Below are positions 3,217 through 16,316 of a stretch of 45,100 bases of DNA, piece by piece. Source of the stretch: an uncultured Pseudomonadota bacterium (GTDB taxonomy: Bacteria > Myxococcota_A > UBA9042 > PHBI01 > CALCNF01); assembly GCA_937897815.1 (NCBI GenBank), contig CALCNF010000177.1, positions 1-45,100 of the forward strand. The letters run 5' to 3'. Both the position numbers and the translations under genes were made by a program. The notes under the pieces are model-generated. The model was not told where the DNA came from, searched no databases, and was given only the letters and a program-made list of their open reading frames with translations. Position 1 is the first letter of the stretch; every line of letters starts with the position of its first letter.

Positions 3217-3954
3217 TCAGGCCAGGGCCACACCGAGCAACATCGCGCACAGCCCCGACGCCGCGACCATGAAGGCCTTGAGTCTTGACGGTCCGACGAC
3301 GTTCGCGGCCCTGTACATGCCGCCCAACCAAGCCAAGAAGCCCAGGATCGTCAAGAGGCTCATGACTCGGCTCGGCCGCACCTCGCGATGCAGGTGCGCC
3401 TCATAGAAGGCGACCCGCGAAGCGCGATCTCCTCCAACGCTCCTCCCTGTCCGAAGCGCGTCCCTCGACTCCCAGGTCGCCATCATCGGGGCCAGTCGCG
3501 CGTCCACCTTCGCGATGCGATCCTGGTCCGGCCTCCACAGGCCGTGACCGGCGAGGATCCCTGAACGAAGAGAGGAGAGCGCCATCACGGCTCCCGGGAG
3601 ATCGCCTGCTGTCTCTCGCTCGTCTGCCAACGCCTCGAGACGGTCCATCGCGTCGCCCCGCCAGGGCGCGGCCAGAGGCAACACCCAGCTCACCGCCTCG
3701 CGCCAGGCCACCGCCGCGCCGAGGTGATCTCCTCGAGCGTGGGCCGCGTCTCCACGCTCCAGCGCGCCCGACCCGCTCGTGACGATCCGCCCGACCAGCA
3801 CCAGCAACACCACAGCGATGATGGCGAACAGCGCTCCCCGGCCGCGGGCCGGCGAGACGACGGCGCCGCCCTCAGACGCGCCCTCTTCTTGGGTCTCAGA
3901 TGAAGTCACGGCGCTCGAATGCCCAGATAGCGATGACGAGGAAGACGAGCCCAT
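3217..3954 (-). CDS. Hypothetical membrane protein (Ser-rich N-terminus, TM helix near the N-terminus and TM helices at the C-terminus)
   Basis: Last ORF of the long minus-strand array. It overlaps the permease stop (3896). Hydrophobic segments are ALFAIIAVVLLVLVG and MSLLTILGFLAWLGGMY...AASGLCAMLLGVALA. The start is uncertain: ATG 3954, or GTG 3909 with a 14-nt overlap. No recognisable family. Confidence 0.55.
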   Translation of the reverse strand: MGSSSSSSLSGHSSAVTSSETQEEGASEGGAVVSPARGRGALFAIIAVVLLVLVGRIVTSGSGALERGDAAHARGDHLGAAVAWREAVSWVLPLAAPWRGDAMDRLEALADERETAGDLPGAVMALSSLRSGILAGHGLWRPDQDRIAKVDARLAPMMATWESRDALRTGRSVGGDRASRVAFYEAHLHREVRPSRVMSLLTILGFLAWLGGMYRAANVVGPSRLKAFMVAASGLCAMLLGVALA

Positions 3955-4699
3955 AGGCGAGGGCGTACACGATCGCCTCCCCCATGTAGCTCAGGTGAAC
4001 CGGGACACCCAGCAGCACCTGCTGGCTCACGTTGAAGACCGACAGATCGGGCAGGACCGTCACGGCCGCCTCTCCAACGAAACGGGCAAACGCGTTCTCC
4101 ACAAACAACCCTCGATTCGCCGAGAGCATCTCCTCGATGAGCGGGATCAGTCGACCCGTCGCGAACACGCCGAGGCTGAACAGGCCCGTGAGCACCGGAG
4201 AGGAGAACGCTGAGAACATCACGGCCACGCAGGCGACCAGAGAGACCTCAAGGACGATCAGCGCGATCCCTTTCAGGTGCTCGGCTCCGACGTCGCCTCC
4301 CTGAATCGAGGTGACCATGGCCCAAACGATACCGAGGATCGCCACCTGAACGATCAGAATCCCGATCAGCCCGAAGAGCTTCCCGATAATAAACTCGTGA
4401 CGATGAATCGGCTTGGAGACGATGGTGTAGATGGTCTTCCGCTCGATCTCTTTGTAGACGAGCAGCGCGCCCATCACCACGGCGGTGATGGCCCCCGCGA
4501 GGCTGATGGCGAAGAAGCCGAAGCTCTGAACCACCCGCGCTTCCTGACCCACTACGGCCATCTCGCTCAGGGCGAGCGAGAGCAGGATAAAGGCGATCGA
4601 GAAGGCCACAAGCCCCATGAACGCGCGGTTCCGGAGCGCCTCGCGGAAGGTGTTGCGCGCCACCGCGCCAATCCGCACGGTCGAGACGATATCAGCCAT
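3896..4699 (-). CDS. ABC-2 type transporter permease
   Basis: Polytopic membrane protein with about 6 hydrophobic segments, directly after the ABC ATPase. ATG at 4699 (MADIVSTVRIG...) overlaps the ATPase stop as ATGGCTGA. The track start at 4732 is probably an extension. Confidence 0.8.
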   Translation of the reverse strand: MADIVSTVRIGAVARNTFREALRNRAFMGLVAFSIAFILLSLALSEMAVVGQEARVVQSFGFFAISLAGAITAVVMGALLVYKEIERKTIYTIVSKPIHRHEFIIGKLFGLIGILIVQVAILGIVWAMVTSIQGGDVGAEHLKGIALIVLEVSLVACVAVMFSAFSSPVLTGLFSLGVFATGRLIPLIEEMLSANRGLFVENAFARFVGEAAVTVLPDLSVFNVSQQVLLGVPVHLSYMGEAIVYALAYGLVFLVIAIWAFERRDFI

Positions 4700-5642
4700 C
4701 GGCGCCTCCTGCCTCGGCGGCCTCGCGGACAAACAGCTCCTCGAGGCTCACCCGGTGCGGGTTCACGTGGGTAACAGAGGCTCCGCCCTCCATCAGCGCC
4801 TGGAGCGCCGTCGCCTGGTGCTCGCCCGCCAATCGGATTCTCGTCGCCAATCCGACAACCTCAAGGCCAGCTCCGAGACTCTCGAGGCGCTCGCGCGTCC
4901 CATCTGCGACCTCATGGGCCACGATCTCGACGCCCATGCTCTCAGAGCGAAGCATCTCAGCGAGAGGCCCAACGCGCACCACCTGGCCCTCCACGATCAT
5001 GGCGACGCGGTCACAGATCGTCTCAATATCATTGAGGATATGGGTCGAGAAGAAGACCGTCTTCCCCTGCTCGCGCAGCGAGACGATGATGTTGCGCACC
5101 TCACGACGTCCCATGGGATCAAGGCCGCTCAGGGGCTCATCGAGGATCACCAGATCAGGGTCGGCGATCAGCGCCTGCGCGATGCCCACCCTCTGGAGCA
5201 TTCCCTTGGAAAATCGACGGAGCGTTCGATCTCGGGCGTGGGCGAGACCCACCAGCTCCAAGAGGGAGTCGATGCGCTTCCGACGCGCTTTGCGCGGGAG
5301 CTCATAGAGCTGTCCATAGAAGTCGAGGATCTCGAAGGCCGTGAGGTAGTCATAGAAGAACGGGTGCTCAGGGAGATAGCCGATCCGCCGGCGAATGGCC
5401 GGGTCCGCGATGTCGCCACCGAGGACGCGTATGGAGCCCGCCGTGGGCTGGATCAGCCCCATGGCCATCTTCATGCTGGTCGTCTTTCCGGCGCCGTTCG
5501 GACCGAGATATCCGAAGATCTCTCCCGGCTGAACCTCCAGATCGACGCCGCGCACAGCGTGCACACGAGTTAAGCCCAGACCGAGCTTGAACTCCTTCTC
5601 CAGACCCTTGAACACCAGGGCCGGCGTTGACGCTTCGCTCAT
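4692..5642 (-). CDS. ABC transporter ATP-binding protein (ABC-2 exporter type)
   Basis: Walker A GPNGAGKTT, signature FSKGMLQRVGIAQAL, Walker B LVILDEPLSGLD. The start ATG overlaps the aminotransferase stop (ATGA). Confidence 0.92.
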   Translation of the reverse strand: MSEASTPALVFKGLEKEFKLGLGLTRVHAVRGVDLEVQPGEIFGYLGPNGAGKTTSMKMAMGLIQPTAGSIRVLGGDIADPAIRRRIGYLPEHPFFYDYLTAFEILDFYGQLYELPRKARRKRIDSLLELVGLAHARDRTLRRFSKGMLQRVGIAQALIADPDLVILDEPLSGLDPMGRREVRNIIVSLREQGKTVFFSTHILNDIETICDRVAMIVEGQVVRVGPLAEMLRSESMGVEIVAHEVADGTRERLESLGAGLEVVGLATRIRLAGEHQATALQALMEGGASVTHVNPHRVSLEELFVREAAEAGGADG

Positions 5643-6748
5643 CTGCTCTCCATTGCGCGTCGAAGGGCGCTCACGACCTCTTCGACGTCTTCAGGGGTCA
5701 TCTCGACCGTCACAGGCAGGGTGAGGCAGCTCTGAGCGAACCGCGAGGCGTTCGGGACGTCCTCGGTCCGGAGACCATATCGGTCCCGGTAATAGGGCTG
5801 CTCGGAGAGGGCATATCCTCCGATGGTGGTCTGAACCCCTTCGTCGGCCAGGTGCGCCATCACCGCGTCACGATCCACGTCAGCCGAGAGCTCGACCACC
5901 ATGGACTGACAGCTCAGGTCCGCCAGGTCATAACCTTGCGGCCAGCGCACGCCCTCGAGGGGGGCGAGCGCCTCTCGATAGAGCGCCGTGATCCGGCGCC
6001 GCTCCGAGACGATGAACTCCAGTCGATCGAGCTGCACCAGGCCGATGGCGGCGCTCATGTCGCTCATTCGATAGTTGAAGCCGGCGATGGAGAAGCGACT
6101 CCAGCTGGTGGCGTTCGGATCCATGCCGTGATTGCGCAAGGCCCGCATACGCTCGGCCAGCTCGTCGTCGTCGGTGGCGATCACGCCTCCCTCGCCGGTC
6201 GTGATCGTCTTTCTCGGGTGAAAAGATAGACACACAGGTAGCGCTCCTGTGCCCCATCGCGTGCCCTGGGCCGTGCCGAGCGCGCAAGCCGCGTCCTCGA
6301 TCAGCCACCAGCCCCTGGAGTCACACAAGGACTTCAGCTCCGGCGTCGGAGCGGGGATCCCGAAGGGATGGACCAGGATCACGCCGACGGTCCGCTCAGT
6401 AGCGACGGCCTCGATCGACTCGACCGTCAGGGCGAAGCGCTCCAGATCCACGTCAGCGGCGACGGCCCGGGCGCCCGTCAGCTCGACCGCGTTGGCGGTC
6501 GCAGGGAAGCCGAAGGCAGGAACGATCACCTCGTCGTGGGGCGTGAGGCCCATGGCGACCGCGCTCACGTGCAGCGCCGCTGTACCCGAGCTCACGGCGA
6601 CGGCGTGGCGGATCTCCAGGAGCTCGGCCAAGCGCGCCTCAAAGGCCGCCACACGTGGCCCCTGAACCAGGTGCCCGCTCTTGAGCACCTCCGCGAGCGC
6701 GCTCAGCTCCTCGTCTCCGAGGACAGGTCGGTGAAGTGGGTGCTTCAT
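5639..6748 (-). CDS. DegT/DnrJ/EryC1/StrS-family PLP-dependent sugar aminotransferase
   Basis: Typical family layout: SGHLVQGPRVAAFE, SGTAALH, VIVPAFGFPATANAV, and a SFHPRKTITTGEGG lysine region. ATG at 6748 forms an ATGA overlap with the upstream SDR stop. Confidence 0.9.
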   Translation of the reverse strand: MKHPLHRPVLGDEELSALAEVLKSGHLVQGPRVAAFEARLAELLEIRHAVAVSSGTAALHVSAVAMGLTPHDEVIVPAFGFPATANAVELTGARAVAADVDLERFALTVESIEAVATERTVGVILVHPFGIPAPTPELKSLCDSRGWWLIEDAACALGTAQGTRWGTGALPVCLSFHPRKTITTGEGGVIATDDDELAERMRALRNHGMDPNATSWSRFSIAGFNYRMSDMSAAIGLVQLDRLEFIVSERRRITALYREALAPLEGVRWPQGYDLADLSCQSMVVELSADVDRDAVMAHLADEGVQTTIGGYALSEQPYYRDRYGLRTEDVPNASRFAQSCLTLPVTVEMTPEDVEEVVSALRRAMESR

Positions 6749-7701
6749 GCGAGCTGACTCCGGTACCACTCAATGGTCTCGAGGAGACCCGAGTCCAGCT
6801 CGACCCGCGGTTCATAGTCCAGGAGCTCCCTGGCCTTGCTGATGTCCGGGATGCGCAGCTCCACGTCAGGAAAGTCCCAGGGGATGTGCTCGATGGCGCT
6901 CGAGGAGCCCGTGAGCCGCACGATATCGCGCGCCAGCTGGTGGATGGTCACGGTGGAGCGCGGGTTGCCAATATTGAAGGCGTTGCCGATCGCCTCTTCT
7001 CGATGAAGGGTCGCGAGGACCCCGTCGACGATGTCGTCGATGTAGCACCACGCGCGGATCTGCGAGCCGTCGTTGTGGATGGTGAGGGTCTCACCGCGGA
7101 GGGCCCGAACGATGAAGTGATGGACCGCGCCCGATCCCACCTGCCTCGGGCCGTAGATGTTGAAGGGGCGGACGCTCACCGCAGGGACGCCGAACTCCTT
7201 GTGATAGTTCAGGGCGAGATGCTCCGTGGCGAGCTTGCTCACGGCGTAGGTCCAGCGAGCTTCACCGACCGCTCCCAGCTGGGTCGCGTCGCCCTCCGTG
7301 ACTCGAAACGCATAGCGGCCAAAGACCTCTGAGGTGGAGAAGTCGACCAGGCGCTCCACGCCGCCCATCTCATGTGCGACCTCAAGCACGTTCATGGTGC
7401 CCAGCAAGGCGACCTTCATGGTCAGCACCGGGTTCTTCATGACCGTATCGACGCCCGCGATGGACGCCATATGAACGATGATCTGGCATCCCTCTGCGGC
7501 GCGCGCCACGGTCTCCCGATCGAGCACATCCCCTCGAATCAGAGTGACGTTCGGGTGCTCGATCAGCGAGGTGGTGCTCATGGCATCGCGGTGGAGGTTG
7601 TCGAGGATCACAACCTCGTTGTTCTCCACCAGCCGTAAGGTCAACGAGCTCCCGATAAAGCCCGCCCCACCCGTGATCAGAATTTTCCGTCCCTGAATCA
7701 T
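6745..7701 (-). CDS. NAD-dependent epimerase/dehydratase (extended SDR; UDP-glucuronate decarboxylase/ArnA C-terminal-like)
   Basis: MIQGRKILITGGAGFIGSSL Rossmann motif, STSEVFG, catalytic YAVSK, and RPFNIYGPRQ. The real start is ATG at 7701. The 458-aa track ORF (to 8121) is an extension that overlaps the upstream gene. Confidence 0.9.
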   Translation of the reverse strand: MIQGRKILITGGAGFIGSSLTLRLVENNEVVILDNLHRDAMSTTSLIEHPNVTLIRGDVLDRETVARAAEGCQIIVHMASIAGVDTVMKNPVLTMKVALLGTMNVLEVAHEMGGVERLVDFSTSEVFGRYAFRVTEGDATQLGAVGEARWTYAVSKLATEHLALNYHKEFGVPAVSVRPFNIYGPRQVGSGAVHHFIVRALRGETLTIHNDGSQIRAWCYIDDIVDGVLATLHREEAIGNAFNIGNPRSTVTIHQLARDIVRLTGSSSAIEHIPWDFPDVELRIPDISKARELLDYEPRVELDSGLLETIEWYRSQLA

Positions 7702-7708
7702 TGTTGAA

Positions 7709-8737
7709 TCATCCGCCTCTGGAGCCATCGAGCTCCATCTTGGTCCAGGTTGCAGGAGGGAGGCCATCGTGCTCAGGGCCCAGGGTCTCGAAGAGCCCGA
7801 ACGGCATGTAGCCATACTCGCTCTTCCAGCGCTCCTCGATCTTCTCCAGGCGCGTCGCGGCCGCGGCGCTCTGGTAGCGCGTGATACGACCGCGCAGCGA
7901 GGCCCGCTCACGCTCGCTGGACTCCCAGTAGCGTAGATAGGCGTGAAAGAGAGCCATGGAGACGTCGTTGCGCTGCAAATACAGCTCGGTGACGAAGTTG
8001 GGGTCGAGCTGAGAGCCCGGCAAGGAGGCGGCGATGGAGAAATAGGGGAGCGCCTTCTCCTGCATGGCCAGGCGCTCGGCCTCATCCTCGTGCTTCCACT
8101 CAATGTAGTAGTTGAAGCCAATGTCGAAGTAGAAGCGCCAGTGATCGGGGAACCGCTCGATGCCCCTGCGAGCGTAATCGTTCGACCTCTCCAGGCTCTC
8201 CTTGCTGATCATCTGACCGTACTTCAGCGACTGGCTCGCCCACTCATAGACGCGCGGGTTGTCCGGATCGAGGGCCAGGATCGCCTCCGCATAGACGTCG
8301 AGCCAATTGTAAATGCGGTCCGAGAAGAGATGAGAGATGAAGTACATGTTGGCTCGGGTGAACAACATGTCGGCGACGAATCCTCGATGATCCAGGGCCA
8401 GGGCCTTGAGGACATCCGCAGGCGGGATATAGGAGGCCTCGGCCGTCTGAGCCCGCTCCATGGGCGCCAGCTGGTACGCGAGCTCCAGGCGCGAGGTCTT
8501 GGTCACCAGGGCTCCCGAGACCAGGAGCGCGGCGAGAACGACCGCCATGAGCCGACGCCGCGGCGTCGCGCTCCACCAGGTGATCCACTCCGCGAGCCAG
8601 CGAACAAAGCGCAGCGGCGCCATGATCACGGCCAGGAGCCCGATGGCGATCCCATGGAAGACGGCGCTCAGGCCCGTCCTGGACGGTGCGTTCGTCCCCA
8701 CGTCAATCCTCGTCCCTGGGATCGGCGCCGAGCTCAT
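7709..8737 (-). CDS. Hypothetical membrane-anchored protein with helical-repeat-like C-terminal domain
   Basis: Two N-terminal hydrophobic segments (GLSAVFHGIAIGLLAVIMAPL, LMAVVLAALLVSGALV), then a W/Y/F-rich soluble region. ATG 8737 overlaps pilR by 35 nt. An alternative GTG at 8701 lies 1 nt after the pilR stop and is preceded by GAGGA, which looks at least as good. No family recognised. Confidence 0.6.
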   Translation of the reverse strand: MSSAPIPGTRIDVGTNAPSRTGLSAVFHGIAIGLLAVIMAPLRFVRWLAEWITWWSATPRRRLMAVVLAALLVSGALVTKTSRLELAYQLAPMERAQTAEASYIPPADVLKALALDHRGFVADMLFTRANMYFISHLFSDRIYNWLDVYAEAILALDPDNPRVYEWASQSLKYGQMISKESLERSNDYARRGIERFPDHWRFYFDIGFNYYIEWKHEDEAERLAMQEKALPYFSIAASLPGSQLDPNFVTELYLQRNDVSMALFHAYLRYWESSERERASLRGRITRYQSAAAATRLEKIEERWKSEYGYMPFGLFETLGPEHDGLPPATWTKMELDGSRGG

Positions 8738-10127
8738 ACTTCTCGAGCTTGTAGCGGATCGAGCGGAAGCTGATCTTGAGCAGACGCGCCGCCTCGGTGC
8801 GGTTTCCGTCGGTGTGGTTCAGCGCCTGCATGAGCAGATCTCGCTCCAGATCCGCGAGGGCGGCCTCCAGATCGAGGCCCTCGTCCGGCAGCTCAATATG
8901 GGCAGAAACTCCGTCAGCCCGCGCGACGCCCAGGAGCGCCGGCGGGAGACTCGTTCGGGTCACCAGCGGGTGGGTCTCGAAGGTCACGGCGCGCTCGATA
9001 ACGTTCTCCAACTCACGAACGTTACCCGGGTAGTCATAGGCCAGGATCGCCTCCATGGCCGTGGGTTCGAAGTCCGTGATCTCCTTGCCCATCTCGTCCG
9101 AGAAGCGCTTGAGGAAGCTCTGGGCGATGGGCGCGATATCGGAGCGCCGCTCCCGCAGGGACGGCACCTCGATGTGAATCACGTTGAGCCGGTAATACAG
9201 ATCCTCACGGAAGGTCCCCTGTCGAATCGCGCTATCGAGATCCTGGTTCGTCGCGGCGATGACGCGCACGTTCACCGGGCGCTCCTCATGGGAGCCCACA
9301 GGGCGGACGAGCCGCTCCTGGAGGACCCGCAGAAGCTTCACCTGCAGGTGCATCGGGACGTCACCGATCTCATCGAGGAAGATCGTCCCCTGGTCCGCGG
9401 CGGCGAACATACCCAGCTTATCGGCGTGAGCTCCTGTGAAGGCCCCCTTCACGTGTCCAAAGAGCTCCGACTCCAGGAGATGCTCTGGAATGGCCCCGCA
9501 GTTCACGGTCACGAGAGGCGACTCCTTGCGCTCGCTCGCCGAGTGCAGGGCGCGCGCGATGAGGCTCTTACCCGTGCCGCTCTCTCCTGTGATGAGGACG
9601 CTCGTGCGGGTCTGCGCGACGCGAGAGATCAGGTCGAACACCTGCTGCATCCGGGGGCTACGACCGATCAGGTTGTGGTAGCTGTGCTGACGCCTGACCT
9701 GCGCGCGGAGCTCTCGGTTCTCCACCAGCAGGCGCCGCTGCTCGAGCCCCTTGGAGACCACGACCGCGATCTCATCGACGTTGAAGGGCTTCTGGACGTA
9801 GTCGTAAGCGCCCCGCTTCATGGCCTCGATCGCCGTCTCTGCTGAGGCGTAGGCCGTCATCATCAGGACCTGGGTGTCCGGAAAGCTGCCCTTGACGCTG
9901 TCGAGCACCCCCATACCATCCACGTCGGGCATCTTCAGGTCTGTGAGGACGAGATCAAACTCCTCCCCGGCCTCGATCAGGGCGACGGCCTCGACGCCGC
10001 CGTCGGCCACGTGGACCTCATGCCCAGCTTTTCGGAGGAAGATCTCCAAGAACTCTCGGAGACTCTGCTCATCATCAACGACCAGAATTCGGGATGGCTG
10101 CGACATGGAGCCCGATGTTCGCCCCAT
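8703..10127 (-). CDS. pilR: Sigma-54-dependent two-component response regulator (NtrC family, PilR-like)
   Basis: REC domain (ILVVDDEQS...DLVLTDLKMPDVDG), AAA+ domain with GESGTGKS and the GAFTGA loop, and a C-terminal Fis-type HTH (NRTEAARLLKISFRSIRYKL). Lies next to a PilS-like kinase and pilBTC. The start is ATG 10127 or ATG 10106. Confidence 0.85.
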   Translation of the reverse strand: MGRTSGSMSQPSRILVVDDEQSLREFLEIFLRKAGHEVHVADGGVEAVALIEAGEEFDLVLTDLKMPDVDGMGVLDSVKGSFPDTQVLMMTAYASAETAIEAMKRGAYDYVQKPFNVDEIAVVVSKGLEQRRLLVENRELRAQVRRQHSYHNLIGRSPRMQQVFDLISRVAQTRTSVLITGESGTGKSLIARALHSASERKESPLVTVNCGAIPEHLLESELFGHVKGAFTGAHADKLGMFAAADQGTIFLDEIGDVPMHLQVKLLRVLQERLVRPVGSHEERPVNVRVIAATNQDLDSAIRQGTFREDLYYRLNVIHIEVPSLRERRSDIAPIAQSFLKRFSDEMGKEITDFEPTAMEAILAYDYPGNVRELENVIERAVTFETHPLVTRTSLPPALLGVARADGVSAHIELPDEGLDLEAALADLERDLLMQALNHTDGNRTEAARLLKISFRSIRYKLEKYELGADPRDED

Positions 10128-10144
10128 AGGGGCGAGGAATCAAG

Positions 10145-11842
10145 TCAGGCCGCTTGATGAACCGGGAGGTCCACCAGAAAGGTCGTCCCGTTTGATCCGG
10201 TGTCCACGCTCACGGTGCCCCCGTGCTCGCTCACGATCCGGTAGACCGTAGCGAGCCCCAGCCCCGTTCCGCTCGCTTTGGTGGTGAAGAAGGGCTCGAA
10301 GAGACGCTCGAGCACGTCGTCCGGGATCCCGGGACCCGTGTCGTGGAAAGCGACACGATTGAACACGCCCTTGTCCTCCCGACGCTCGCTGATCTCGATC
10401 GTCAGGGTGCCCTCTCCGTTCATGGCCTGCACCGCGTTGTTGATCACGTTCCAGACGACCTGCTTGAGATAGGTTGGATCTCCGTAGGTGCTGGCATCGC
10501 TCGACGGGTTGAACACGACCTCGATCCCGGCTGACCTCTCGTCGTTGGCCAGGACGGCCAGGGAGTCCGAGATCAGAGGCGCGATGGGGATGGAGAGCCG
10601 CTCTCCGACCCGAGGACGCGCGTACATCAAGAAGTCGGTGATCCACGCGTTGAGGTTGTCCGTCTCGCGGTTCACGATCTCCATCAACCGGCGGTCGTCC
10701 TCCTCCAGATCCAGGGTCGAGCGGAGGAGCTGAATGGAGCCGGAGATCGAGGCCAGCGGGTTCCGAATCTCGTGGGCGATGGCGGCGGCGACGCGACCCA
10801 GAGAGGCGAAGTTCTCCGCGCGCTTCATCTGCTCCTCCATGTTTCGAACGTCGGTCTCGTCATCGAAGATCAGGACGTGGCCGATACGAGAACCTCTGGA
10901 GTCGAGCAGGGGACTGATGGTCCACCGCACGTAGCAGAGCTTACCCCGAAAGACCTCGCTCGTGAGCTCGACCGTCTGCCCTCGGATCTTGTCCTCATTG
11001 AGGAAGATCTGCTTCAGATCCGAGAAGTAACGCGTGATGTCCTGGTAGAGAATCTCCCGCGATTGATAGCCGGTGATCCGCTCTGCCTCACGGTTGAAGA
11101 AGGTGACCTGCAACGACTGATTCACCGTGATCAGACCCGACTGGATCGAGGCGACGATGTTCCGGTGCAGAACCCTGAGGTCCTCCAGGGAGAGCTCACT
11201 CTCCTGGATCCGCTCATCGCTTCGGCGAAGCTGGTCGGCCAGGTAGCTCGCCAAAAAGGCGATGACATAAAAGGCGACGACGTTCACCACCAGGTTCTTG
11301 GCGATGGTCGTCAGGGACTGCTCCTCGGTGCCCACGGGGTCGAGGGGGCCCACGCCCGACAGACGCATGTCGGTCAAGAACGTGCTCTCGGGGATGATCC
11401 CCATCTCGGTCATCCCGATGACCAGAAGCAAGAGCGAGCTCAGGGTAGCCAGGGTGATGGCGCCGGCCCGAAACAGGATGATGGCGGCCAGGACGATCGT
11501 GAGCGAGAAGAAGAAGGTGAAGACGCTCGCGGTTCCGCCGGTGATGTAGACCAGCGCCGCGGCGAACAGGACGTCGCCGCACAGCTGAACGTACGCCAGG
11601 ACCACGAGCTGGCGGCGGCCAGCGACGAACCTCAGCGCCGTGACGTAGAACAGGCTGAGCAGACAGACGATGGCGACGAGTCGATAGATCGTGACCTCGG
11701 TCGCGACCGATGCGCTCGACTGAATCCGCGCCTGCCACTCGATGAGCGCCGTGGCTCCGAGCAGGACAGTCGCCAGCGCGATGCGAATGACCGTGAGCAT
11801 CCTGAGCCTGCGGCGCAGCTCCAGGAGGACAGGGGGCTCCAT
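10145..11842 (-). CDS. pilS: Sensor histidine kinase (PilS-like: polytopic N-terminus, PAS-like region, HisKA, HATPase_c)
   Basis: H-box AAAIAHEIRNPLASI; ATP-binding motifs NNAVQAM, DTGPGI, GTGLGLA; about six N-terminal TM segments. ATG at 11842 (MEPPVLLELRRRL) avoids the overlap with pilC that the 605-aa track ORF creates. Confidence 0.8.
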   Translation of the reverse strand: MEPPVLLELRRRLRMLTVIRIALATVLLGATALIEWQARIQSSASVATEVTIYRLVAIVCLLSLFYVTALRFVAGRRQLVVLAYVQLCGDVLFAAALVYITGGTASVFTFFFSLTIVLAAIILFRAGAITLATLSSLLLLVIGMTEMGIIPESTFLTDMRLSGVGPLDPVGTEEQSLTTIAKNLVVNVVAFYVIAFLASYLADQLRRSDERIQESELSLEDLRVLHRNIVASIQSGLITVNQSLQVTFFNREAERITGYQSREILYQDITRYFSDLKQIFLNEDKIRGQTVELTSEVFRGKLCYVRWTISPLLDSRGSRIGHVLIFDDETDVRNMEEQMKRAENFASLGRVAAAIAHEIRNPLASISGSIQLLRSTLDLEEDDRRLMEIVNRETDNLNAWITDFLMYARPRVGERLSIPIAPLISDSLAVLANDERSAGIEVVFNPSSDASTYGDPTYLKQVVWNVINNAVQAMNGEGTLTIEISERREDKGVFNRVAFHDTGPGIPDDVLERLFEPFFTTKASGTGLGLATVYRIVSEHGGTVSVDTGSNGTTFLVDLPVHQAA

Positions 11843-11891
11843 GGTCTTCGCTTGCTGGGGAGCTGCCGCCTCGTGTGACGGCTCTCGAACG

Positions 11892-13091
11892 CTAGGCAAA
11901 GGTGTCGCCCATCGCGAAGATCGGCATGTACATCGCGAGCATAACGGTGCCGATGATGCCACCGAGGACGACCATGATGATCGGCTCGATCATCGAGGTG
12001 AGGCCGTCGACGGCCGTATCGACCTCGTCATCATAGAAGTCTGCGATCTTACTTAACATAATGTCCATGGCGCCCGTGGACTCACCGACGCCGATCATCT
12101 GCACAACCATCTTCGGGAACACGCCCGCCTCGAGGAGCGGACCGGCGATGGATTTACCCTCTGAGATCTGGTCCTTCACGTAATAGACAGCGTCCTCAAT
12201 CACGCGATTACCCGCGGTCTTGGCGACGATGTCCAGGGCGTCGAGGATCGGAACGCCTGAGGAGATCAGGGTTCCCAGGGTACGGGTGAACTTGGCGATC
12301 GACGCCTTCGTCACCAGGTCTCCCATCACGGGTAAGCGCAGCAAGACCCAGTCGATCGCGTACTCGCCCTTGTCCGTGCGTTTGATGAGAAAGAACACGA
12401 TCATGACCACGCTGAAGATGCCGACGATCGACCAGAAGTTGTTCACCGCGTAATCGGAGAACGCCACGACGGTGACGGTCAGCGCAGGCAGGTCCTTACC
12501 CATGGATTTGAACATGCCCGCGAACTGCGGGATCACCTTCACCAGAAGGAACATGGTGATGATGCCCGACACGAAGATAACCGTGATCGGGTACTTCATG
12601 GCCGACTTGACCTTCGCCTTGAGCTTAGCCGCCTTCTCCATGTAGGCGCTCAAGCGGTTGAGGATGGTGTCGAGAATACCGCCCATCTCACCGGCGCTGA
12701 TCAGGTTTGTGAAGAGGTTATCGAACACGGCCGGATGCTTGCCCAGCGCGCCCGCGAACGTCGAGCCGCTCTCGACCGACTGCTTCACCTGCAGGATGGT
12801 CATCTGGAAGAGCGGGTTGGGCTCCTGGCTGCCCAGGATCTCCAGGCACTTCACCAGGGGCAGGCCCGCGTCGATCATGGTCGCGAGCTGACGCGTAAAG
12901 ACCACCATGGACTTGTTGGGCACCTTGGTGATGCCCGGGATGATGATCGCGCCGCCACCCTTCTTCCAGACCTTCTGGGGGGTGACTCCCATCTCACGAA
13001 GCTGATCTTCGCACGCCGCCTGAGAAGGCGCGTCGAGCACACCAGTGGCCATCTGCCCCTGGCGATCTGTTCCTTCGTATTCGAAAAGCAC
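11892..13091 (-). CDS. pilC: Type IV pilus inner-membrane platform protein PilC (GspF family)
   Basis: Duplicated T2SSF-type regions (FTRQLATMIDAGLPLVKCLEIL and FTRTLGTLISSGVPILDALDIV) and TM segments. The likely start is GTG at 13091, preceded by GGAGG plus an 8-nt spacer, giving (M)LFEYEGTDRQGQ. The track start at 13172 is a possible extension. Confidence 0.88.
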   Translation of the reverse strand: MLFEYEGTDRQGQMATGVLDAPSQAACEDQLREMGVTPQKVWKKGGGAIIIPGITKVPNKSMVVFTRQLATMIDAGLPLVKCLEILGSQEPNPLFQMTILQVKQSVESGSTFAGALGKHPAVFDNLFTNLISAGEMGGILDTILNRLSAYMEKAAKLKAKVKSAMKYPITVIFVSGIITMFLLVKVIPQFAGMFKSMGKDLPALTVTVVAFSDYAVNNFWSIVGIFSVVMIVFFLIKRTDKGEYAIDWVLLRLPVMGDLVTKASIAKFTRTLGTLISSGVPILDALDIVAKTAGNRVIEDAVYYVKDQISEGKSIAGPLLEAGVFPKMVVQMIGVGESTGAMDIMLSKIADFYDDEVDTAVDGLTSMIEPIIMVVLGGIIGTVMLAMYMPIFAMGDTFA

Positions 13092-13246
13092 CCAGCTCAC
13101 CTCCGCCGCGTAGCAGTCTACCGCATCCTCGCGTGCGCGGGAAATCTCAGCCAACCTGGACCGACCCGCCAAAGATCAACGGGAGGATCCCCCTCGACCT
13201 GAAGTCCGGGGATCAAACGGCGGCGAGAGCCTCCACTTCGCGAGGG

Positions 13247-14374
13247 TCAGCGCCGCTTCGGGACCGACGTCGCGCTCGGGTTGAACATCGCGTTGAGCTC
13301 CTCGATATCGTGGGAGTACTGGAACGCGGTCTCCCGGCTGATCGTGTGGCTCTGAACGAGCCCAAAGAGGCTTTGGTTCATGGTCAGCATGCCGTGACCC
13401 CCCTGACCCATTTGCATCTGCGAGTAGATCTGGTGGGTCTTCTCTTCCCGGATGAGGTTTCGCACCGCGGCGTTGGGCAACATCACCTCACAGGCCAGGG
13501 CGCGACCCTTGCCGTCGGAGCGAACCAGCAGCTGCTGGCTGATGACGGCCTCCAGCACGAAGGACAGCTGGGTGCGCACCATCTCCTGGTGCTTCGGCGG
13601 GAAGAAGTCCAGGACCCTGTGAATGGTCTGGATCGCGCTGTTCGTGTGGAGGGTCGCGAACGCGAGATGGCCGGTCTCGGCGATGCGAAGCGCCGCCTCC
13701 ATGGTCTCATAGTCTCGGATCTCGCCGATCAGGACCACATCGGGATCCTGACGTAGGACGTACCGAAGAGCCTCCGAGAAGGTCGCCGTGTCCGTGCCGA
13801 TCTCGCGCTGATTCACGATGGACTTCTTGTGCTGATGCACGAACTCGATGGGATCTTCGATGGTGATGATGTGGTGCCGGTGCCGCGAGTTGATGGCGTC
13901 GATGATGCTCGCGAGCGTGGTCGACTTTCCCGATCCGGTCGCGCCGGTGACCAGGACCAGGCCCTGGGCTTTGTCGACAAGTCCAGACACAGACTTTGGA
14001 AAACCGAGTCCAGCGAGAGGCCGGGTCTCAAAAGGGATCATGCGAAGGGCACCGGCCATCTGCCCTCGCTGACGAAAGAAGTTCGCGCGGAAGCGACTCG
14101 CGCCCTTCCACTGGAAGGAGAGATCAACCTCGTTGGTCTCCTCGAACTGCTTCTTCTGGCGCTCATTGAGCACGCTGTACGCGATGGACTCCACATCAGC
14201 GCCCGACAGGGGCGGGGTTCGCAAAGGAAACAGGGAACCGTTGATCCGGAGCTGCGGCGGAGACTCCGCCGTCAGGTGAAGATCACTGGCGCCCTGCTCC
14301 ACCATGGTCTGGAGCAAGCGATGGACGTCCACTGTGGGCTTCGTCTTCTCAGCGCTCGCGCCAGAATCATGCAT
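13247..14374 (-). CDS. pilT: Type IV pilus retraction ATPase PilT
   Basis: Walker A GATGSGKST and the PilT signature AVRNLIRE. ATG at 14374 (MHDSGASAEK...) overlaps the pilB stop as ATGCATGA. The 429-aa track ORF is an Arg/Ser-rich extension running through pilB. Confidence 0.92.
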   Translation of the reverse strand: MHDSGASAEKTKPTVDVHRLLQTMVEQGASDLHLTAESPPQLRINGSLFPLRTPPLSGADVESIAYSVLNERQKKQFEETNEVDLSFQWKGASRFRANFFRQRGQMAGALRMIPFETRPLAGLGFPKSVSGLVDKAQGLVLVTGATGSGKSTTLASIIDAINSRHRHHIITIEDPIEFVHQHKKSIVNQREIGTDTATFSEALRYVLRQDPDVVLIGEIRDYETMEAALRIAETGHLAFATLHTNSAIQTIHRVLDFFPPKHQEMVRTQLSFVLEAVISQQLLVRSDGKGRALACEVMLPNAAVRNLIREEKTHQIYSQMQMGQGGHGMLTMNQSLFGLVQSHTISRETAFQYSHDIEELNAMFNPSATSVPKRR

Positions 14375-16097
14375 TGTCGGCACGGGTGGTGCGCAGGATC
14401 TCCGAGACCGTGGTGGTGCCGTCCATGAGCTTGTGAATCGCAGACTGTCGAAGGGTCTGCATACCAAGCGCGATCGCCTCCTTCTTGAGCTCCATCGCCG
14501 AATAACCCTGAAGCACGGCCTCTTTGATGCCGTCATTCATGGCCATCACCTCATAGAGAGCGACGCGACCCTTGAAGCCCGTTTCATTGCAGGTCTTGCA
14601 TCCCTTGCCCATGGTCGGTTTGCAGTCAGCGATCTGCTCATCGGACATGCCGATGTCCTTCATGGTCTTCTCTTCAAGCTCAATGGGCTCTTTGCACTCG
14701 CCACAGATTCGACGAGCGAGACGCTGCGCGACGATCGCGTTCAGAGATGAGGTGACGAGGAACGGCTCGACGCCCATGTTCAACAGACGGTTGATGGTCG
14801 AAGGCGCGTCATTCGTGTGCAAGGTGGAGAGCACGAGGTGACCCGTGAGCGCCGCTTTAATCGCGATCTCGGCCGTCTCAAAGTCACGAATCTCGCCCAC
14901 CATGATGATGTCCGGGTCCTGACGCAGAAACGAGCGAAGGGCCGCCGCGAAGTTCAAGCCGATCGAGTCACGCATCTGGCACTGATTGATGCCGGCCATG
15001 TTGAACTCAACCGGGTCCTCTGCGGTGGAGATGTTCTCCGTGACCTTGTTGAGATCCTGCAGCGCTGAGTAGAGCGTCGTGGTCTTTCCAGACCCCGTCG
15101 GTCCCGTCACCAACACCATGCCAAACGGCTGGTGAATGTTGGTAAGGAACGTCTCGAGCTGCGGCGTCTCGAAGCCGAGCTTGGTCATGTCGAGCTGAAG
15201 GTTCGACTTATCAAGAATTCGAAGAACGGACTTCTCGCCAAAGAGCGTGGGCAGGATGCTGACGCGGAAATCCACCTCCTTGTCCTTACCCATAACCAGC
15301 TTAATACGACCATCCTGAGGGAGCCTTCGCTCAGCGATGTCCAGCTCGCTCATAATCTTGATACGGCTTGTGATGGCGTTACGAAGGCGCATCGGCGGTC
15401 GCATGATCTCGTAGAGCACGCCATCGATGCGGTACCGAATTCGGAACTCCTTCTCGTAGGGCTCGATGTGGATATCGGAGGCCCCGCGCTTGATCGCGTC
15501 GACCAGCACGACGTTGCACAGACGGACGACGGGCGCCTCTCCGGCCTCGTCCTCGAGGTTGTCGAGATCGAGATCCGCGGCGCTCTCGCTCATGAAGTCG
15601 ACCTCGTCGACATCCACGTCGTCGAAGATCTCCTCTCCTGAACTCCCGCCGTAGTACCGCTCGAGAGCCGACTCGATGGAGGCCTCGCTGGTGACCACCG
15701 CCTCGACGTCAAATCCCGTGAGGAACTTGATGTCGTCCATGGCGTAGATGTTCGAGGGATCGGTCATCGCCACGACAATGGTGGAGCCGTGTTTGTCGAT
15801 CGGGATGATGCCGTGACGCTCCGCCACATCCTGGGGGATCATCTCAATGACGTCCTCTTCGACCTCCACCTCTTCGAGGTTGATCGAGGGCACGCCGTAC
15901 TGACGGCTCAGAAACTCAACCAGCTGAGTCTCTTTGACGTAGCCGAGTCGCGCCAGGGCGCCGGTGAGACCAGCGCCACCCTTGGCGGCTTCAGCCTTCG
16001 CCTCTTCCAGCTCGTCCTCGCTGACCATGTCATTGCGGACCAGGACATCACCGAGGTTTCCCCCGCCCTGTCCTCCAGCACCATCTTCGTCTGCCAT
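14367..16097 (-). CDS. pilB: Type IV pilus assembly ATPase PilB (GspE family)
   Basis: N-terminal T2SSE_N-like domain, Walker A GPTGSGKTT, and the tetracysteine motif CGEC...CKTC. ATG at 16097 is preceded by AGGAGG. The track start at 16232 is a TTG inside a promoter-like TTGACA. Confidence 0.92.
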   Translation of the reverse strand: MADEDGAGGQGGGNLGDVLVRNDMVSEDELEEAKAEAAKGGAGLTGALARLGYVKETQLVEFLSRQYGVPSINLEEVEVEEDVIEMIPQDVAERHGIIPIDKHGSTIVVAMTDPSNIYAMDDIKFLTGFDVEAVVTSEASIESALERYYGGSSGEEIFDDVDVDEVDFMSESAADLDLDNLEDEAGEAPVVRLCNVVLVDAIKRGASDIHIEPYEKEFRIRYRIDGVLYEIMRPPMRLRNAITSRIKIMSELDIAERRLPQDGRIKLVMGKDKEVDFRVSILPTLFGEKSVLRILDKSNLQLDMTKLGFETPQLETFLTNIHQPFGMVLVTGPTGSGKTTTLYSALQDLNKVTENISTAEDPVEFNMAGINQCQMRDSIGLNFAAALRSFLRQDPDIIMVGEIRDFETAEIAIKAALTGHLVLSTLHTNDAPSTINRLLNMGVEPFLVTSSLNAIVAQRLARRICGECKEPIELEEKTMKDIGMSDEQIADCKPTMGKGCKTCNETGFKGRVALYEVMAMNDGIKEAVLQGYSAMELKKEAIALGMQTLRQSAIHKLMDGTTTVSEILRTTRADNA

Positions 16098-16202: not shown

Positions 16203-16232
16203 ATCGTAGCCGCGCGCAGGATGGACTGTCAA
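16203..16232 (-). promoter_or_regulatory. Candidate sigma-70-type promoter for pilB
   Basis: The minus strand reads TTGACA, an 18-nt spacer, then TACGAT, about 105 nt upstream of the pilB ATG. Sequence match only. Confidence 0.35.
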
Positions 16233-16258
16233 CTGACCGCAGGCTGGAGATGCACCGA

Positions 16259-16276
16259 GAAAAGCAGCGGCTTTTC
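16259..16276 (-). terminator. Possible hairpin terminator after trmFO
   Basis: GAAAAGC-(4 nt)-GCTTTTC, a 7-bp stem about 40 nt downstream of the trmFO stop. The T-run lies inside the stem rather than after it, so this is weak. Confidence 0.25.
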
Positions 16277-16316
16277 AGTAGGTTGCACGGGTGACCCCCG
16301 AGACCAAGCGTGGAGT

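Follow-up and report, generated by a model that had tools for sequence, protein, structure and literature searches.

A type IVa pilus core cluster that runs into a candidate PilG/PilH/PilI-type module with predicted amino-sugar enzymes in an uncultured marine myxobacterium

Introduction

In Myxococcus xanthus, pilA, pilG, pilH and pilI form a single operon and PilGHI are required for pili (PMC3546991, PMC3724824, PMC3924187), being described as necessary for the translocation or the assembly of pilin (PMC3724824). The genes lie in the order pilS-pilR-pilA-pilG-pilH-pilI (MXAN_5785-5780), and PilGHI are classified as TCDB 3.A.1.144.5. M. xanthus pilA is said, from the work of Wu and Kaiser in 1997, to be sigma-54 dependent. 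The PilGHI-type system has been unexplained since 1998.

Three further systems resemble parts of the locus described here. In ArnA (its C-terminal decarboxylase) and ArnB, and in Pcryo_0617 (8VR2) with the consecutively numbered 8VR3/8VR5, an SDR with decarboxylase motifs (T-S-E, YxxxK, GPR) is coupled to a DegT 4-aminotransferase. NosDFY joins an ABC-2 (type V) ABC transporter to a periplasmic partner, and we take the system of NosF to be a mechanotransducer and not a substrate exporter. The glycosylation of Pseudomonas aeruginosa group IV pilin employs TfpW, a GT-C arabinosyltransferase, and a D-Araf lipid-linked donor, a pentose pathway and a GT-C enzyme thus being tied to a pilin gene; PMC11841053 cites, at its references 19 and 20, work that by its title connects the biosynthesis of D-Araf with the assembly of pili.

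Results

We analysed a 45.1-kb contig of an uncultured marine myxobacterium, hereafter the window. The original prediction described an array of eleven co-directional genes, and its coordinates, together with Pfam and NCBIfam identities, bear this out: all eleven lie on the minus strand where they had been placed, in the order pilB, pilT, pilC, pilS, pilR, a gene for a 342-aa protein, an extended SDR, a DegT aminotransferase, an ABC ATPase, an ABC-2 permease and a 245-aa membrane protein (Table 1). The start/stop overlaps said to join many of these genes were each read in the sequence as described, namely ATGCATGA at pilB/pilT, ATGA at SDR/DegT and again at DegT/ABC, and ATGGCTGA at ABC/permease, and the junctions are coupled equally tightly in the loci of relatives. 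The relatives also keep the order dprA/topA/trmFO-pilBTCSR-PilG-like-SDR-DegT-ABC-permease-membrane protein-(parBA), with PilG-like proteins that are 54-65% identical.

Table 1 Features of the pilus cluster and the adjoining module in the window.
Feature	Coordinates	Strand	Description
pilB	14367..16097	-	576 aa, ATG 16097; type IVa pilus extension ATPase; Pfam T2SSE 465 bits and MshEN N-domain
Sigma-70-like promoter TTGACA-N18-TACGAT, upstream of pilB	16203..16232	-	Predicted from consensus match only, 10/12 consensus positions
pilT	13247..14374	-	Retraction ATPase; TIGR01420 PilT/PilU 467 bits (cut-off 319); start overlaps pilB stop
pilC	11892..13100	-	Platform protein; two T2SSF domains; start GTG 13100 or TTG 13172
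pilS	10145..11842	-	Sensor histidine kinase; PF25323 6TM_PilS 48.6 bits (cut-off 27), PAS, HisKA, HATPase_c
pilR	8703..10127	-	Sigma-54-dependent response regulator; Response_reg/REC, Sigma54_activat 248 bits, AAA_lid_14, HTH_8
PilG-like 342-aa gene	7709..8737	-	Start ATG 8737 (35-nt overlap with pilR) or GTG 8701
Extended SDR	6745..7701	-	Epimerase / GDP_Man_Dehyd; UDP-uronate oxidative decarboxylase type (UXS / ArnA C-terminal domain-like)
DegT-family sugar 4-aminotransferase, ArnB-like	5639..6748	-	PF01041, 344 bits; ATGA coupling at both ends
PilH-like ABC ATPase	4692..5642	-	ABC_tran
PilI-like ABC-2 permease	3896..4699	-	PF12679 ABC2_membrane_2, 48.5 bits; start overlaps ATPase stop
Sixth module gene, membrane protein	3217..3954	-	About 220-245 aa; start probably GTG 3909

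The first three genes encode, side by side, an MshEN-bearing extension ATPase, a PilT-family ATPase and a two-domain T2SSF platform protein, which is the core of a type IVa pilus. The pilB product is 62-76% identical to that of the same-position gene in relatives. The best NCBIfam model for PilC is the Myxococcus-type NF052606, at 535 bits and under its cut-off of 700, a model that reached at most 648 bits across the 968 genomes searched. PilS and PilR form a sigma-54 two-component system by their domains, the PilR translation carrying an intact GAFTGA loop, and by the promoters found at both pilA genes of this genome, at which PilR binding is predicted from sequence. Both rpoN and pilM are present in the genome, the latter encoded away from the cluster.

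The array had been predicted to lack a pilin gene, and none was detected in the window: of the 8-9 genomic sites matched by the TIGR02532 prepilin model, none is on this contig, and a relaxed pattern for the pilin leader gave a single match that we judged spurious. Because the cluster is interior to its contig, the gap between pilR and the 342-aa gene where pilA would be expected is no assembly break, and at least nine related contigs show the identical junction. The reported lack of a convincing TGGCAC-N5-TTGC element extends to the whole window, which holds no such site even when one mismatch is allowed. A search of the genome for pilin genes with sigma-54 promoters, which the original prediction had proposed, located two pilA genes, intact or nearly so, one at an end of contig C316 and one at an end of C390, with TGGCAT-N5-TTGC lying about 120 nt before the ATG of each; the genome has only 29 strict sigma-54 sites, where by our own calculation its base composition would predict about 16. 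Members of the same order likewise have 1-3 orphan pilA genes each behind the same sigma-54 promoter, with a GTGAC-N7-GTCAC palindrome 166-176 nt upstream of the promoter in three of five, and no ABC genes were found beside them. In this order the pilin gene has left the pil cluster, and the two pilA genes of this genome lie elsewhere behind sigma-54 promoters. The suggestion that the sigma-54 target of PilSR is located elsewhere is thus supported by these distal genes and by the presence of rpoN. It had been offered as one of two alternatives, the other being a pilus-linked glycan or export function, and each is partly true alongside the other.

The 342-aa and the 245-aa proteins matched no family in Pfam or NCBIfam. 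AlphaFold models the former as all-helical (pLDDT 81.6), and the top Foldseek matches of the model, although weak, are TPR proteins; we read the protein as an N-terminal membrane anchor plus a TPR-like helical solenoid, in the position of PilG. A profile of this family matches 257 of 301 genomes of the phylum. When the protein was compared by tblastn with the genes that follow pilin genes in other families, where pilR is succeeded by 1-3 pilin genes and then by the PilG-like gene, E values of 6e-29, 4e-28, 2e-25, 6e-14 and 6e-8 were obtained. The ABC ATPase is 41-66% identical to the ATPases of pilA-linked modules. Its nearest NCBIfam models are DrrA and GldA, each below cut-off, and its best full-length solved relative is NosF (E 1.5e-51), with matches to ABCA-type nucleotide-binding domains as well. 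Sequence searches with the permease returned no solved relative. The sixth protein is hydrophobic in one N-terminal and two C-terminal segments, with a helical part between them; its gene and that of the permease are each single copy in the genome, and a homologue follows the permease at the same position in most loci. From their position, and their homology to pilA-linked genes across Myxococcota, we judge the 342-aa gene, the ABC ATPase and the ABC-2 permease to be a PilG/PilH/PilI-type module, co-directional and coupled, in which two enzymes are interleaved and to which a sixth gene is appended. The predicted pilG-position gene and PilH/PilI-like pair find support in this phylum-wide comparison with pilA-linked genes of other Myxococcota.

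The closest solved relative of the SDR is the oxidoreductase/decarboxylase Pcryo_0617 (8VR2, E 3e-106), followed by human UDP-xylose synthase (UXS1, 1e-46) and the ArnA C-domain (1e-24). The motifs GGAGFIG, STSEVFG, YAVSK and FNIYGPRQ are invariant in 14 orthologues and supply the GxxGxxG NAD site, T-S-E, YxxxK and GPR arginine of the UXS / ArnA C-domain class, whose activity is predicted here. The aminotransferase matches 9BGP, 8VR3/8VR5 and ArnB (E 3e-60) in the PDB, and its motif SFHPRKTITTGEGG holds the expected PLP-binding lysine (in SFHPRK). Neither enzyme reaches the curated cut-off of any named NCBIfam equivalog, so that the sugar is assigned by class alone; the aminotransferase reaches 243 against NF008658 (cut-off 631) and 279 against PseC (cut-off 423), and the SDR reaches 128 against the curated equivalog PRK11908 (cut-off 294). 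Within the module conservation is highest for the SDR, at 65-76% identity versus 30-60% for PilG. Paralogues of both enzymes belong to a separate GT2-SDR-DegT set on contig C458.

We surveyed 65 loci from 42 families of the phylum. A pilin gene lies immediately upstream of the PilG-like gene in 37 of the loci (22 families), and an ABC ATPase and permease lie downstream of it in 27, in 23 of which sugar genes intervene. The SDR is the gene next after PilG in 24 loci (19 families), and an SDR-DegT pair follows in 16 (15 families). In all families of the organism's class, and in several others, the module has the standard layout PilG-SDR-(DegT)-ABC-permease-membrane protein, whereas the bare pilG-pilH-pilI order is a minority. 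Throughout the class the PilG-like gene stands first in a module of six translationally coupled genes, of which the 4-aminotransferase is a usual but not a constant member. The two sugar enzymes had been taken for an insertion at this locus; they are instead conserved and integral in 19 of the 42 families, including every family of the class. Homologous modules stand directly downstream of pilA in JABWCM01, f16, f21, f24, f39, f45 and f57, unlike in the window; in JABWCM01 a 198-aa N_methyl pilin separates pilR from the module. For many PilG-like genes no ABC transporter is encoded in the vicinity, and PilG may therefore act without PilH/PilI. At least six families of the class carry the module with no pil gene within 10 kb, which indicates that it can be passed on without the pilus genes. 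Near the PilG-like gene, 15 loci (10 families) encode a TMEM260-like GT-C protein O-glycosyltransferase (PF11028), and in family f45 a GT2 and a flippase-like PF03706 gene lie within the module. Neither the module nor the window encodes a glycosyltransferase, including any beside a pilin gene in the manner of TfpO/PglL or TfpW, and the TMEM260-like GT-C was not found in this 88%-complete assembly.

Compared with M. xanthus, the locus has the same pilB-pilT-pilC-pilS-pilR order, after which come, tightly coupled and in the same orientation, genes for an accessory membrane protein, an ABC ATPase and an ABC-2 permease, and its pilA genes have sigma-54-type promoters, in line with the sigma-54 dependence reported for M. 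xanthus pilA. It differs in that pilA lies outside the cluster, at two distant places, that genes for two sugar-nucleotide enzymes separate the PilG-like gene from the ATPase, and that a sixth conserved membrane protein is encoded after the permease, where M. xanthus has pilD. As in the ArnA/ArnB pair, the expected product is, by prediction, a UDP-4-amino-4-deoxy-pentose; unlike in that system, the genes lie inside a pilus-associated ABC module and not an LPS-modification operon, the scores are below equivalog cut-offs, and a formyltransferase domain and equivalents of ArnC (GT2), ArnD, ArnT (GT-C) and ArnE/F, the remainder of the Arn lipid A pathway, are absent from the module. The likeness to P. 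aeruginosa is found in related Myxococcota loci, known from their genes, that place a GT-C next to the PilG-like gene and in which pilin glycosylation is putative. That GT-C is TMEM260-like and not TfpW-like, and the account of the Pseudomonas system drawn on here, in PMC11841053, describes no ABC transporter or TPR partner. NosDFY shares the ABC-2-type permease and an extracytoplasmic accessory protein, but NosD is a beta-helix where a TPR solenoid is predicted here, and the locus has no copper or N2O-reductase context.

Discussion

The results of this study allow us to propose a function for the module. We consider it probable that the locus unites the core type IVa pilus genes of a marine Myxococcota lineage with the lineage's own sugar-making version of the PilG/PilH/PilI accessory ABC system, the two being directly fused and the product of the latter serving pilus biogenesis. 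PilS-PilR would act in trans on the distal pilA promoters, probably through the GTGAC-N7-GTCAC upstream site. The SDR would oxidatively decarboxylate a UDP-uronic acid to a UDP-4-keto-pentose, and the DegT enzyme would aminate this to a UDP-4-amino-4-deoxy-pentose, which is probably placed on a lipid carrier by enzymes encoded elsewhere. We infer that this sugar is the cargo or working substrate of PilH/PilI, acting with a periplasm-facing PilG and the sixth protein, and that its likeliest end use in pilus biogenesis is the glycosylation of pilin or of a pilus-associated component. The sugar-bearing layout, extending across the phylum, offers a testable clue to the role of the transporter.

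A more specific version, which we put forward tentatively and as unlikely, makes the PilGHI-type system the membrane arm of a pilus-dedicated glycosylation route. The SDR and DegT enzymes, or in other families a GT2 together with a flippase-like protein, would make a 4-amino-pentose donor, PilH/PilI and the sixth protein would carry the lipid-linked sugar over the inner membrane, and periplasmic PilG would present the pilin for modification. PilG could then be viewed as a detached TPR arm for substrate recognition, of the kind that TMTC/TMEM260-type GT-C O-glycosyltransferases carry, and M. xanthus, with its bare pilGHI, would have a reduced version of this ancestral module.

Glycan export is common among ABC-2 transporters, and the six genes could instead modify an envelope glycan or lipid unrelated to pili, for instance by adding an Arn-like amino-pentose to lipid A, LPS or capsule with an ABC-2 exporter of their own, in which case adjacency to pilR would reflect ancestral synteny near the partition locus of the chromosome. 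The modules without pil genes within 10 kb, often beside parB-parA, are consistent with this, as are the named proteins that the enzymes resemble most, namely ArnB, the ArnA C-domain and an enzyme annotated as oxidoreductase/decarboxylase in Psychrobacter cryohalolentis K5, whose O-antigen is complex (PMC8040287). We nevertheless hold it to be unlikely, since the module begins with a gene of the family found directly after pilin genes in 22 families, the whole module stands behind pilA in JABWCM01, f16, f39, f45 and f57, the remaining Arn functions are missing from the module, and the C458 set could already serve envelope modification.

The match of the ATPase to NosF, the prediction of PilG as a periplasm-facing TPR scaffold and not a solute receptor, and the need for PilGHI in pilin translocation or assembly (PMC3724824) would also suit a NosDFY-like mechanotransducing machine, in which PilG, PilH, PilI and the sixth protein transport nothing and ATP drives a periplasmic pilin-handling step, the SDR and DegT enzymes being passengers. 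That passenger role is hard to reconcile with the conservation of the SDR and with its fixed position between PilG and the ATPase, with start/stop overlaps in 19 families, and in other families further sugar-handling genes (GT2, PF03706, GT-C) replace or join it; we therefore regard this explanation as distinctly doubtful. It is highly improbable that the pilus link is vestigial in this genome, with a cluster that has lost pilA and a PilSR pair that now regulates other sigma-54 genes, as the cluster without pilA and the window without a sigma-54 promoter might suggest, given the two distal pilA genes with canonical sigma-54 promoters, the presence of pilM and rpoN, the orphan pilA genes that relatives retain with the same promoter architecture, and the finding that every gene of the cluster is intact and conserved across the order.

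Results

As the original prediction had it, the array consists of eleven co-directional genes; they occupy the minus strand from 16097 down to 3217, and their assigned identities agree with Pfam and NCBIfam. PilB contains T2SSE and MshEN domains, PilT matches TIGR01420 at 467 bits, PilC contains two T2SSF domains, PilS combines 6TM_PilS, PAS, HisKA and HATPase_c, and PilR combines REC, Sigma54_activat and HTH_8. The remaining assigned genes encode an extended SDR, a DegT aminotransferase, an ABC ATPase and an ABC2_membrane_2 permease; the 342-aa (PilG-like) and 245-aa (sixth) proteins have no family match in either database. We rejected PilD as an identity for the 245-aa protein, given this lack of a family and its approximately three transmembrane segments; PilD has six to eight. 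The overlapping junctions (ATGCATGA, ATGA, ATGA and ATGGCTGA) were read in the sequence just as claimed, and the PilG-like gene and the five genes that follow it form a coupled six-gene module. A candidate sigma-70-like site, TTGACA-N18-TACGAT, lies upstream of pilB, and the array is flanked by trmFO, topA and dprA on one side and by a convergent parB-parA pair on the other. The hairpin GAAAAGC-CGCT-GCTTTTC looks like the trmFO terminator. The window spans all of contig C177 (45.1 kb). The genome bin comprises 4.5 Mb in 766 contigs and is 88%-complete, and contigs related to the window carry the label uncultured Myxococcota.

Coordinates of features in the window's genome (window and contigs C316, C390, C458, C505) and in loci of related genomes (L-numbers; f-numbers are families of these loci)
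Feature	Location	Remarks
PilG-like gene	window 7709..8737 (-)	342 aa
Sixth gene	window 3217..3954 (-)	245 aa
Hairpin GAAAAGC-CGCT-GCTTTTC	window 16240-16290	between trmFO and pilB promoter
pilA	C316:5235-5822	195-aa pilin; contig of 5833 bases
pilA copy	C390, start near 12,920	runs off contig at 13,088
GTGAC-N7-GTCAC palindrome	C390:12624-12640	5' of orphan pilA
Degenerate palindrome copy	C316 about 4945-4961	GTGACATTTTTTGGCAT
GTGAC-N7-GTCAC palindrome	L121:4735; L124:6886-6902; L125:4734	relatives
Response-regulator gene, ~361 aa	C390:11432-12517 (-); L124:8050-9138	MARILIVDDE.HIRTLLRR...; divergent beside orphan pilA
Pilin-like gene, ~178 aa	L079:6877-7410; L085:6985-7521; L092:6962-7501	f31, f34
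GT2 and PF03706 genes	L050:11626-13427 (-); also L049, L075	f45
PF11028 homologues	L055:785-2581; L056:9779-11497
PF11028 homologues, further loci	L065, L066, L069, L082, L083, L086, L087, L089-L091, L093, L113, L120
GT2, SDR paralogue, DegT paralogue	C458:2851-9850	unlinked to the module
Second secretion-ATPase/platform pair	C505:485-3885	with two pseudopilin-like genes

The array was predicted to lack both a pilin gene and a sigma-54 element, and it does: a prepilin N-terminal model finds 8-9 sites genome-wide and none on the window contig, a relaxed pilin-leader pattern gave no credible match over the window, and TGGCAC-N5-TTGC is absent from the window with one mismatch allowed. An assembly artefact was rejected as the cause, as the contig continues on both sides of the cluster and relatives keep the same junction. 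The pilA genes lie instead at the ends of other contigs. Those of C316 and C390 share a coding N-terminus of only 168 bases (95% identity) and differ in their upstream DNA, and are therefore two separate loci; both carry TGGCAT-N5-TTGC approximately 120 nt 5' of the ATG, in a genome with only 29 strict sigma-54 sites on both strands, compared with the ~16 expected from base composition. The same dispersal is seen in five genomes of the same order, each with 1-3 pilA homologues (57-82% identical) away from the pil clusters. Six pilA places of relatives were fetched: L126 has a more divergent pilin, and the other five have a PilA-type gene. In each of these five neighbourhoods the PilA-type gene stands alone, without ABC or pil neighbours, and is preceded by TGGCA[CT]-N5-TTGC. 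The possibility, raised with the original prediction, that a pilA gene with its own ABC genes exists elsewhere is not realised in the relatives; in the window's own genome contig breaks mask the 3' sides of pilA, and the PilG-like, permease and sixth genes each occur once in the assembly. In three of the five PilA-type neighbourhoods the -24 element is preceded, at 166-176 nt, by a GTGAC-N7-GTCAC palindrome. The C390 pilA has this palindrome upstream as well (region GTGACGTTTTTTGTCAC), with a degenerate copy on C316, and the whole genome contains only four TTTTGTCAC sites. The palindrome is a candidate upstream activating site for PilR. Beside the orphan pilA of C390 and of L124 lies a divergent response-regulator gene.

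The gene order in relatives ties the module to pilins. As in the window, the 342-aa gene comes straight after pilR in the closest families; pilR and the module are separated by a 198-aa N_methyl pilin in the family JABWCM01, and in more distant families pilB-pilT-pilC-pilS-pilR is followed by one to three pilin genes and then by the 342-aa homologue (tblastn E-values of 6e-29, 4e-28, 2e-25, 6e-14 and 6e-8). One locus (L051) reads pilR, pilA, pilA, PilG-like, ABC ATPase, permease, without sugar genes, which is the pilA-pilG-pilH-pilI order of M. xanthus (TCDB 3.A.1.144.5; PMC3546991; PMC3924187). Among the species-representative genomes scanned, 22 loci carry the 342-aa gene, followed, where the sequence suffices, by SDR, DegT, ABC ATPase, permease and a small membrane protein. 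The bin BC1.85, which holds locus L015, contains a second copy of the entire pilB-to-ABC array (L027, JAWKRR010000016.1), in which pilC, pilS, pilR, PilG-like, SDR, DegT and ABC match fragmentarily (31-49% identity) and pilR is broken into two parts; either this duplicate is decaying or frameshifts pervade the assembly, and the odd C-terminus of protein P0067 stems from it.

We fetched 60 further loci, whose genes were annotated by comparison with the window's proteins and with accessory genes; the counts cover 65 loci from 42 families. In 37 loci (22 families) the PilG-like gene has a pilin gene as its immediate 5' neighbour. ABC ATPase and permease genes lie downstream of the PilG-like gene in 27 loci (21 families) and directly after it in only four (3 families). 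In 24 loci (19 families) the SDR comes next after it, SDR-DegT follows in 16 (15 families), and a sugar-pathway gene of some kind is adjacent in 36 (27 families). Sugar-pathway genes occur in 23 of the 27 PilG-linked ABC modules of the phylum sample, usually a UDP-uronate decarboxylase and often also a 4-aminotransferase. In the window's own class, PilG-like, SDR, (DegT), ABC and permease are present in 16/16 loci and the sixth gene in 15/16. The sugar enzymes had been taken for an insertion in this genome, but this was not borne out: the same module recurs throughout its class and in other families, and the gene orders indicate that the sugar genes are old and integral to it. The bare M. xanthus-like pilGHI form is a minority in this sample. 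In f45 an opposite-strand GT2 and a PF03706 (LPG_synthase_TM, flippase-like) gene stand where DegT would be, and in 10 families a homologue of the TMEM260-like GT-C protein O-mannosyltransferase (PF11028, 81 and 69 bits) adjoins the PilG-like gene or stands at the module end. In f31 and f34 the gene after the PilG-like one encodes a pilin-like protein with a non-canonical leader, e.g. ...PSLSLIEAALV...; in L085 there follows a GT-C-like polytopic membrane protein of 567 aa whose N-terminus carries an FVYDD motif.

The closest solved relative of the SDR is PDB 8VR2 (E 3e-106, about 50-57% identity), by its entry title the oxidoreductase/decarboxylase Pcryo_0617, followed by human UDP-xylose synthase and the ArnA C-terminal domain. 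Among 14 SDR orthologues STSEVFG, YAVSK and FNIYGPRQ do not vary, and we take them to hold the T-S-E, Tyr-Lys and Arg residues of the UXS/ArnA decarboxylase type; STDE, the 4,6-dehydratase motif, is not matched. GalE-type epimerases and RmlB-type dehydratases are told apart by SSSA and STDE, and both identities were rejected, as STSE is present in their place. The DegT protein is closest to 9BGP, 8VR3/8VR5 and ArnB (E 3e-60) and has the expected PLP lysine. Both enzymes fall below the curated cut-off of every named NCBIfam equivalog. We infer that their product is a UDP-4-amino-4-deoxy-pentose of uncertain configuration and 2-substituent. NosF is the best full-length solved relative of the ABC ATPase, and sequence search gave no solved relative for the permease.

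The 342-aa protein has 67 close relatives, all without a name and all in Myxococcota-type bins. Its AlphaFold model, built from the relatives' alignment (pLDDT 81.6), has N-terminal membrane helices and then an all-helical solenoid, for which Foldseek returned generic TPR matches only, all with E above 0.001. Many homologues have a single positively charged N-terminus and then one hydrophobic helix, from which the TPR-like domain would face the periplasm. The family profile matches 257/301 phylum genomes, nearly always with one copy each, and 335 clusters at E 1e-30 or better in a representative library of 1.8 billion proteins. The 150 representatives from this profile search are without names, and the 10 looked up by cluster are unnamed metagenome singletons; the homologues from protein-library searches are annotated "hypothetical protein", from uncultured bacteria only.

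Discussion

The locus is an ordinary pilus core cluster joined to an accessory ABC system with its own amino-sugar synthesis, its pilin gene having been lost to distal sites. We propose that PilS-PilR, encoded beside the motor genes, would activate the distal pilA promoters in trans. The SDR and DegT would make the UDP-4-amino-pentose, which would probably first be lipid-linked by enzymes encoded elsewhere, and the PilH/PilI transporter, with periplasmic PilG and the sixth protein, would handle the sugar. The product would be used in pilus biogenesis, the leading candidate being pilin or pilus-associated glycosylation, since GT-C neighbours recur and Pseudomonas TfpW/D-Araf offers a precedent (PMC11841053 and its references 19 and 20). 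As a free-standing membrane-anchored TPR protein, PilG might be a detached substrate-recognition arm for TMEM260-like GT-C enzymes. Against the proposal, the module encodes no glycosyltransferase, and the 88%-complete assembly has no TMEM260-like GT-C gene either; several families keep the module apart from their pil genes, and many PilG-like genes have no transporter nearby. The resemblance of the ATPase to NosF would suit a less likely alternative, an ABC system that acts as a mechanotransducer and transports nothing. The GT2 on C458 (51% identical to the GT2 of L032) and its neighbouring SDR and DegT paralogues may be an Arn-like envelope-modification cluster, or may supply the missing lipid-carrier transferase for the module.

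The requirement for PilG, PilH and PilI in M. xanthus type IV pili has been known for over 25 years, and we know of no substrate or mechanism for PilGHI. The literature likewise describes them as required for pili by an unknown mechanism (PMC3724824, PMC3546991, PMC6060248). The M. xanthus pil locus with PilGHI is the closest known system, likened here by gene order; the Myxococcus-type PilC model NF052606 has no match above 648 bits, against a cut-off of 700, in 401 sampled phylum genomes, 151 genomes from a single order, and two high-completeness sets of 123 and 292. Glycosylation, epimerase and aminotransferase genes go unmentioned in a myxobacterial type IV pilus genomics review. The survey thus gives a specific substrate hypothesis for PilGHI, namely a lipid- or nucleotide-linked amino-pentose bound for the pilus. 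The locus also illustrates that PilSR can remain with the pilus motor genes while their sigma-54 targets disperse, with a candidate PilR operator kept at the dispersed sites. Other contigs of the genome carry rpoN and pilM, and the secretion-ATPase/platform pair on C505 (44% to PilB, 35% to PilC) probably belongs to a second type IV filament system or to type II secretion.
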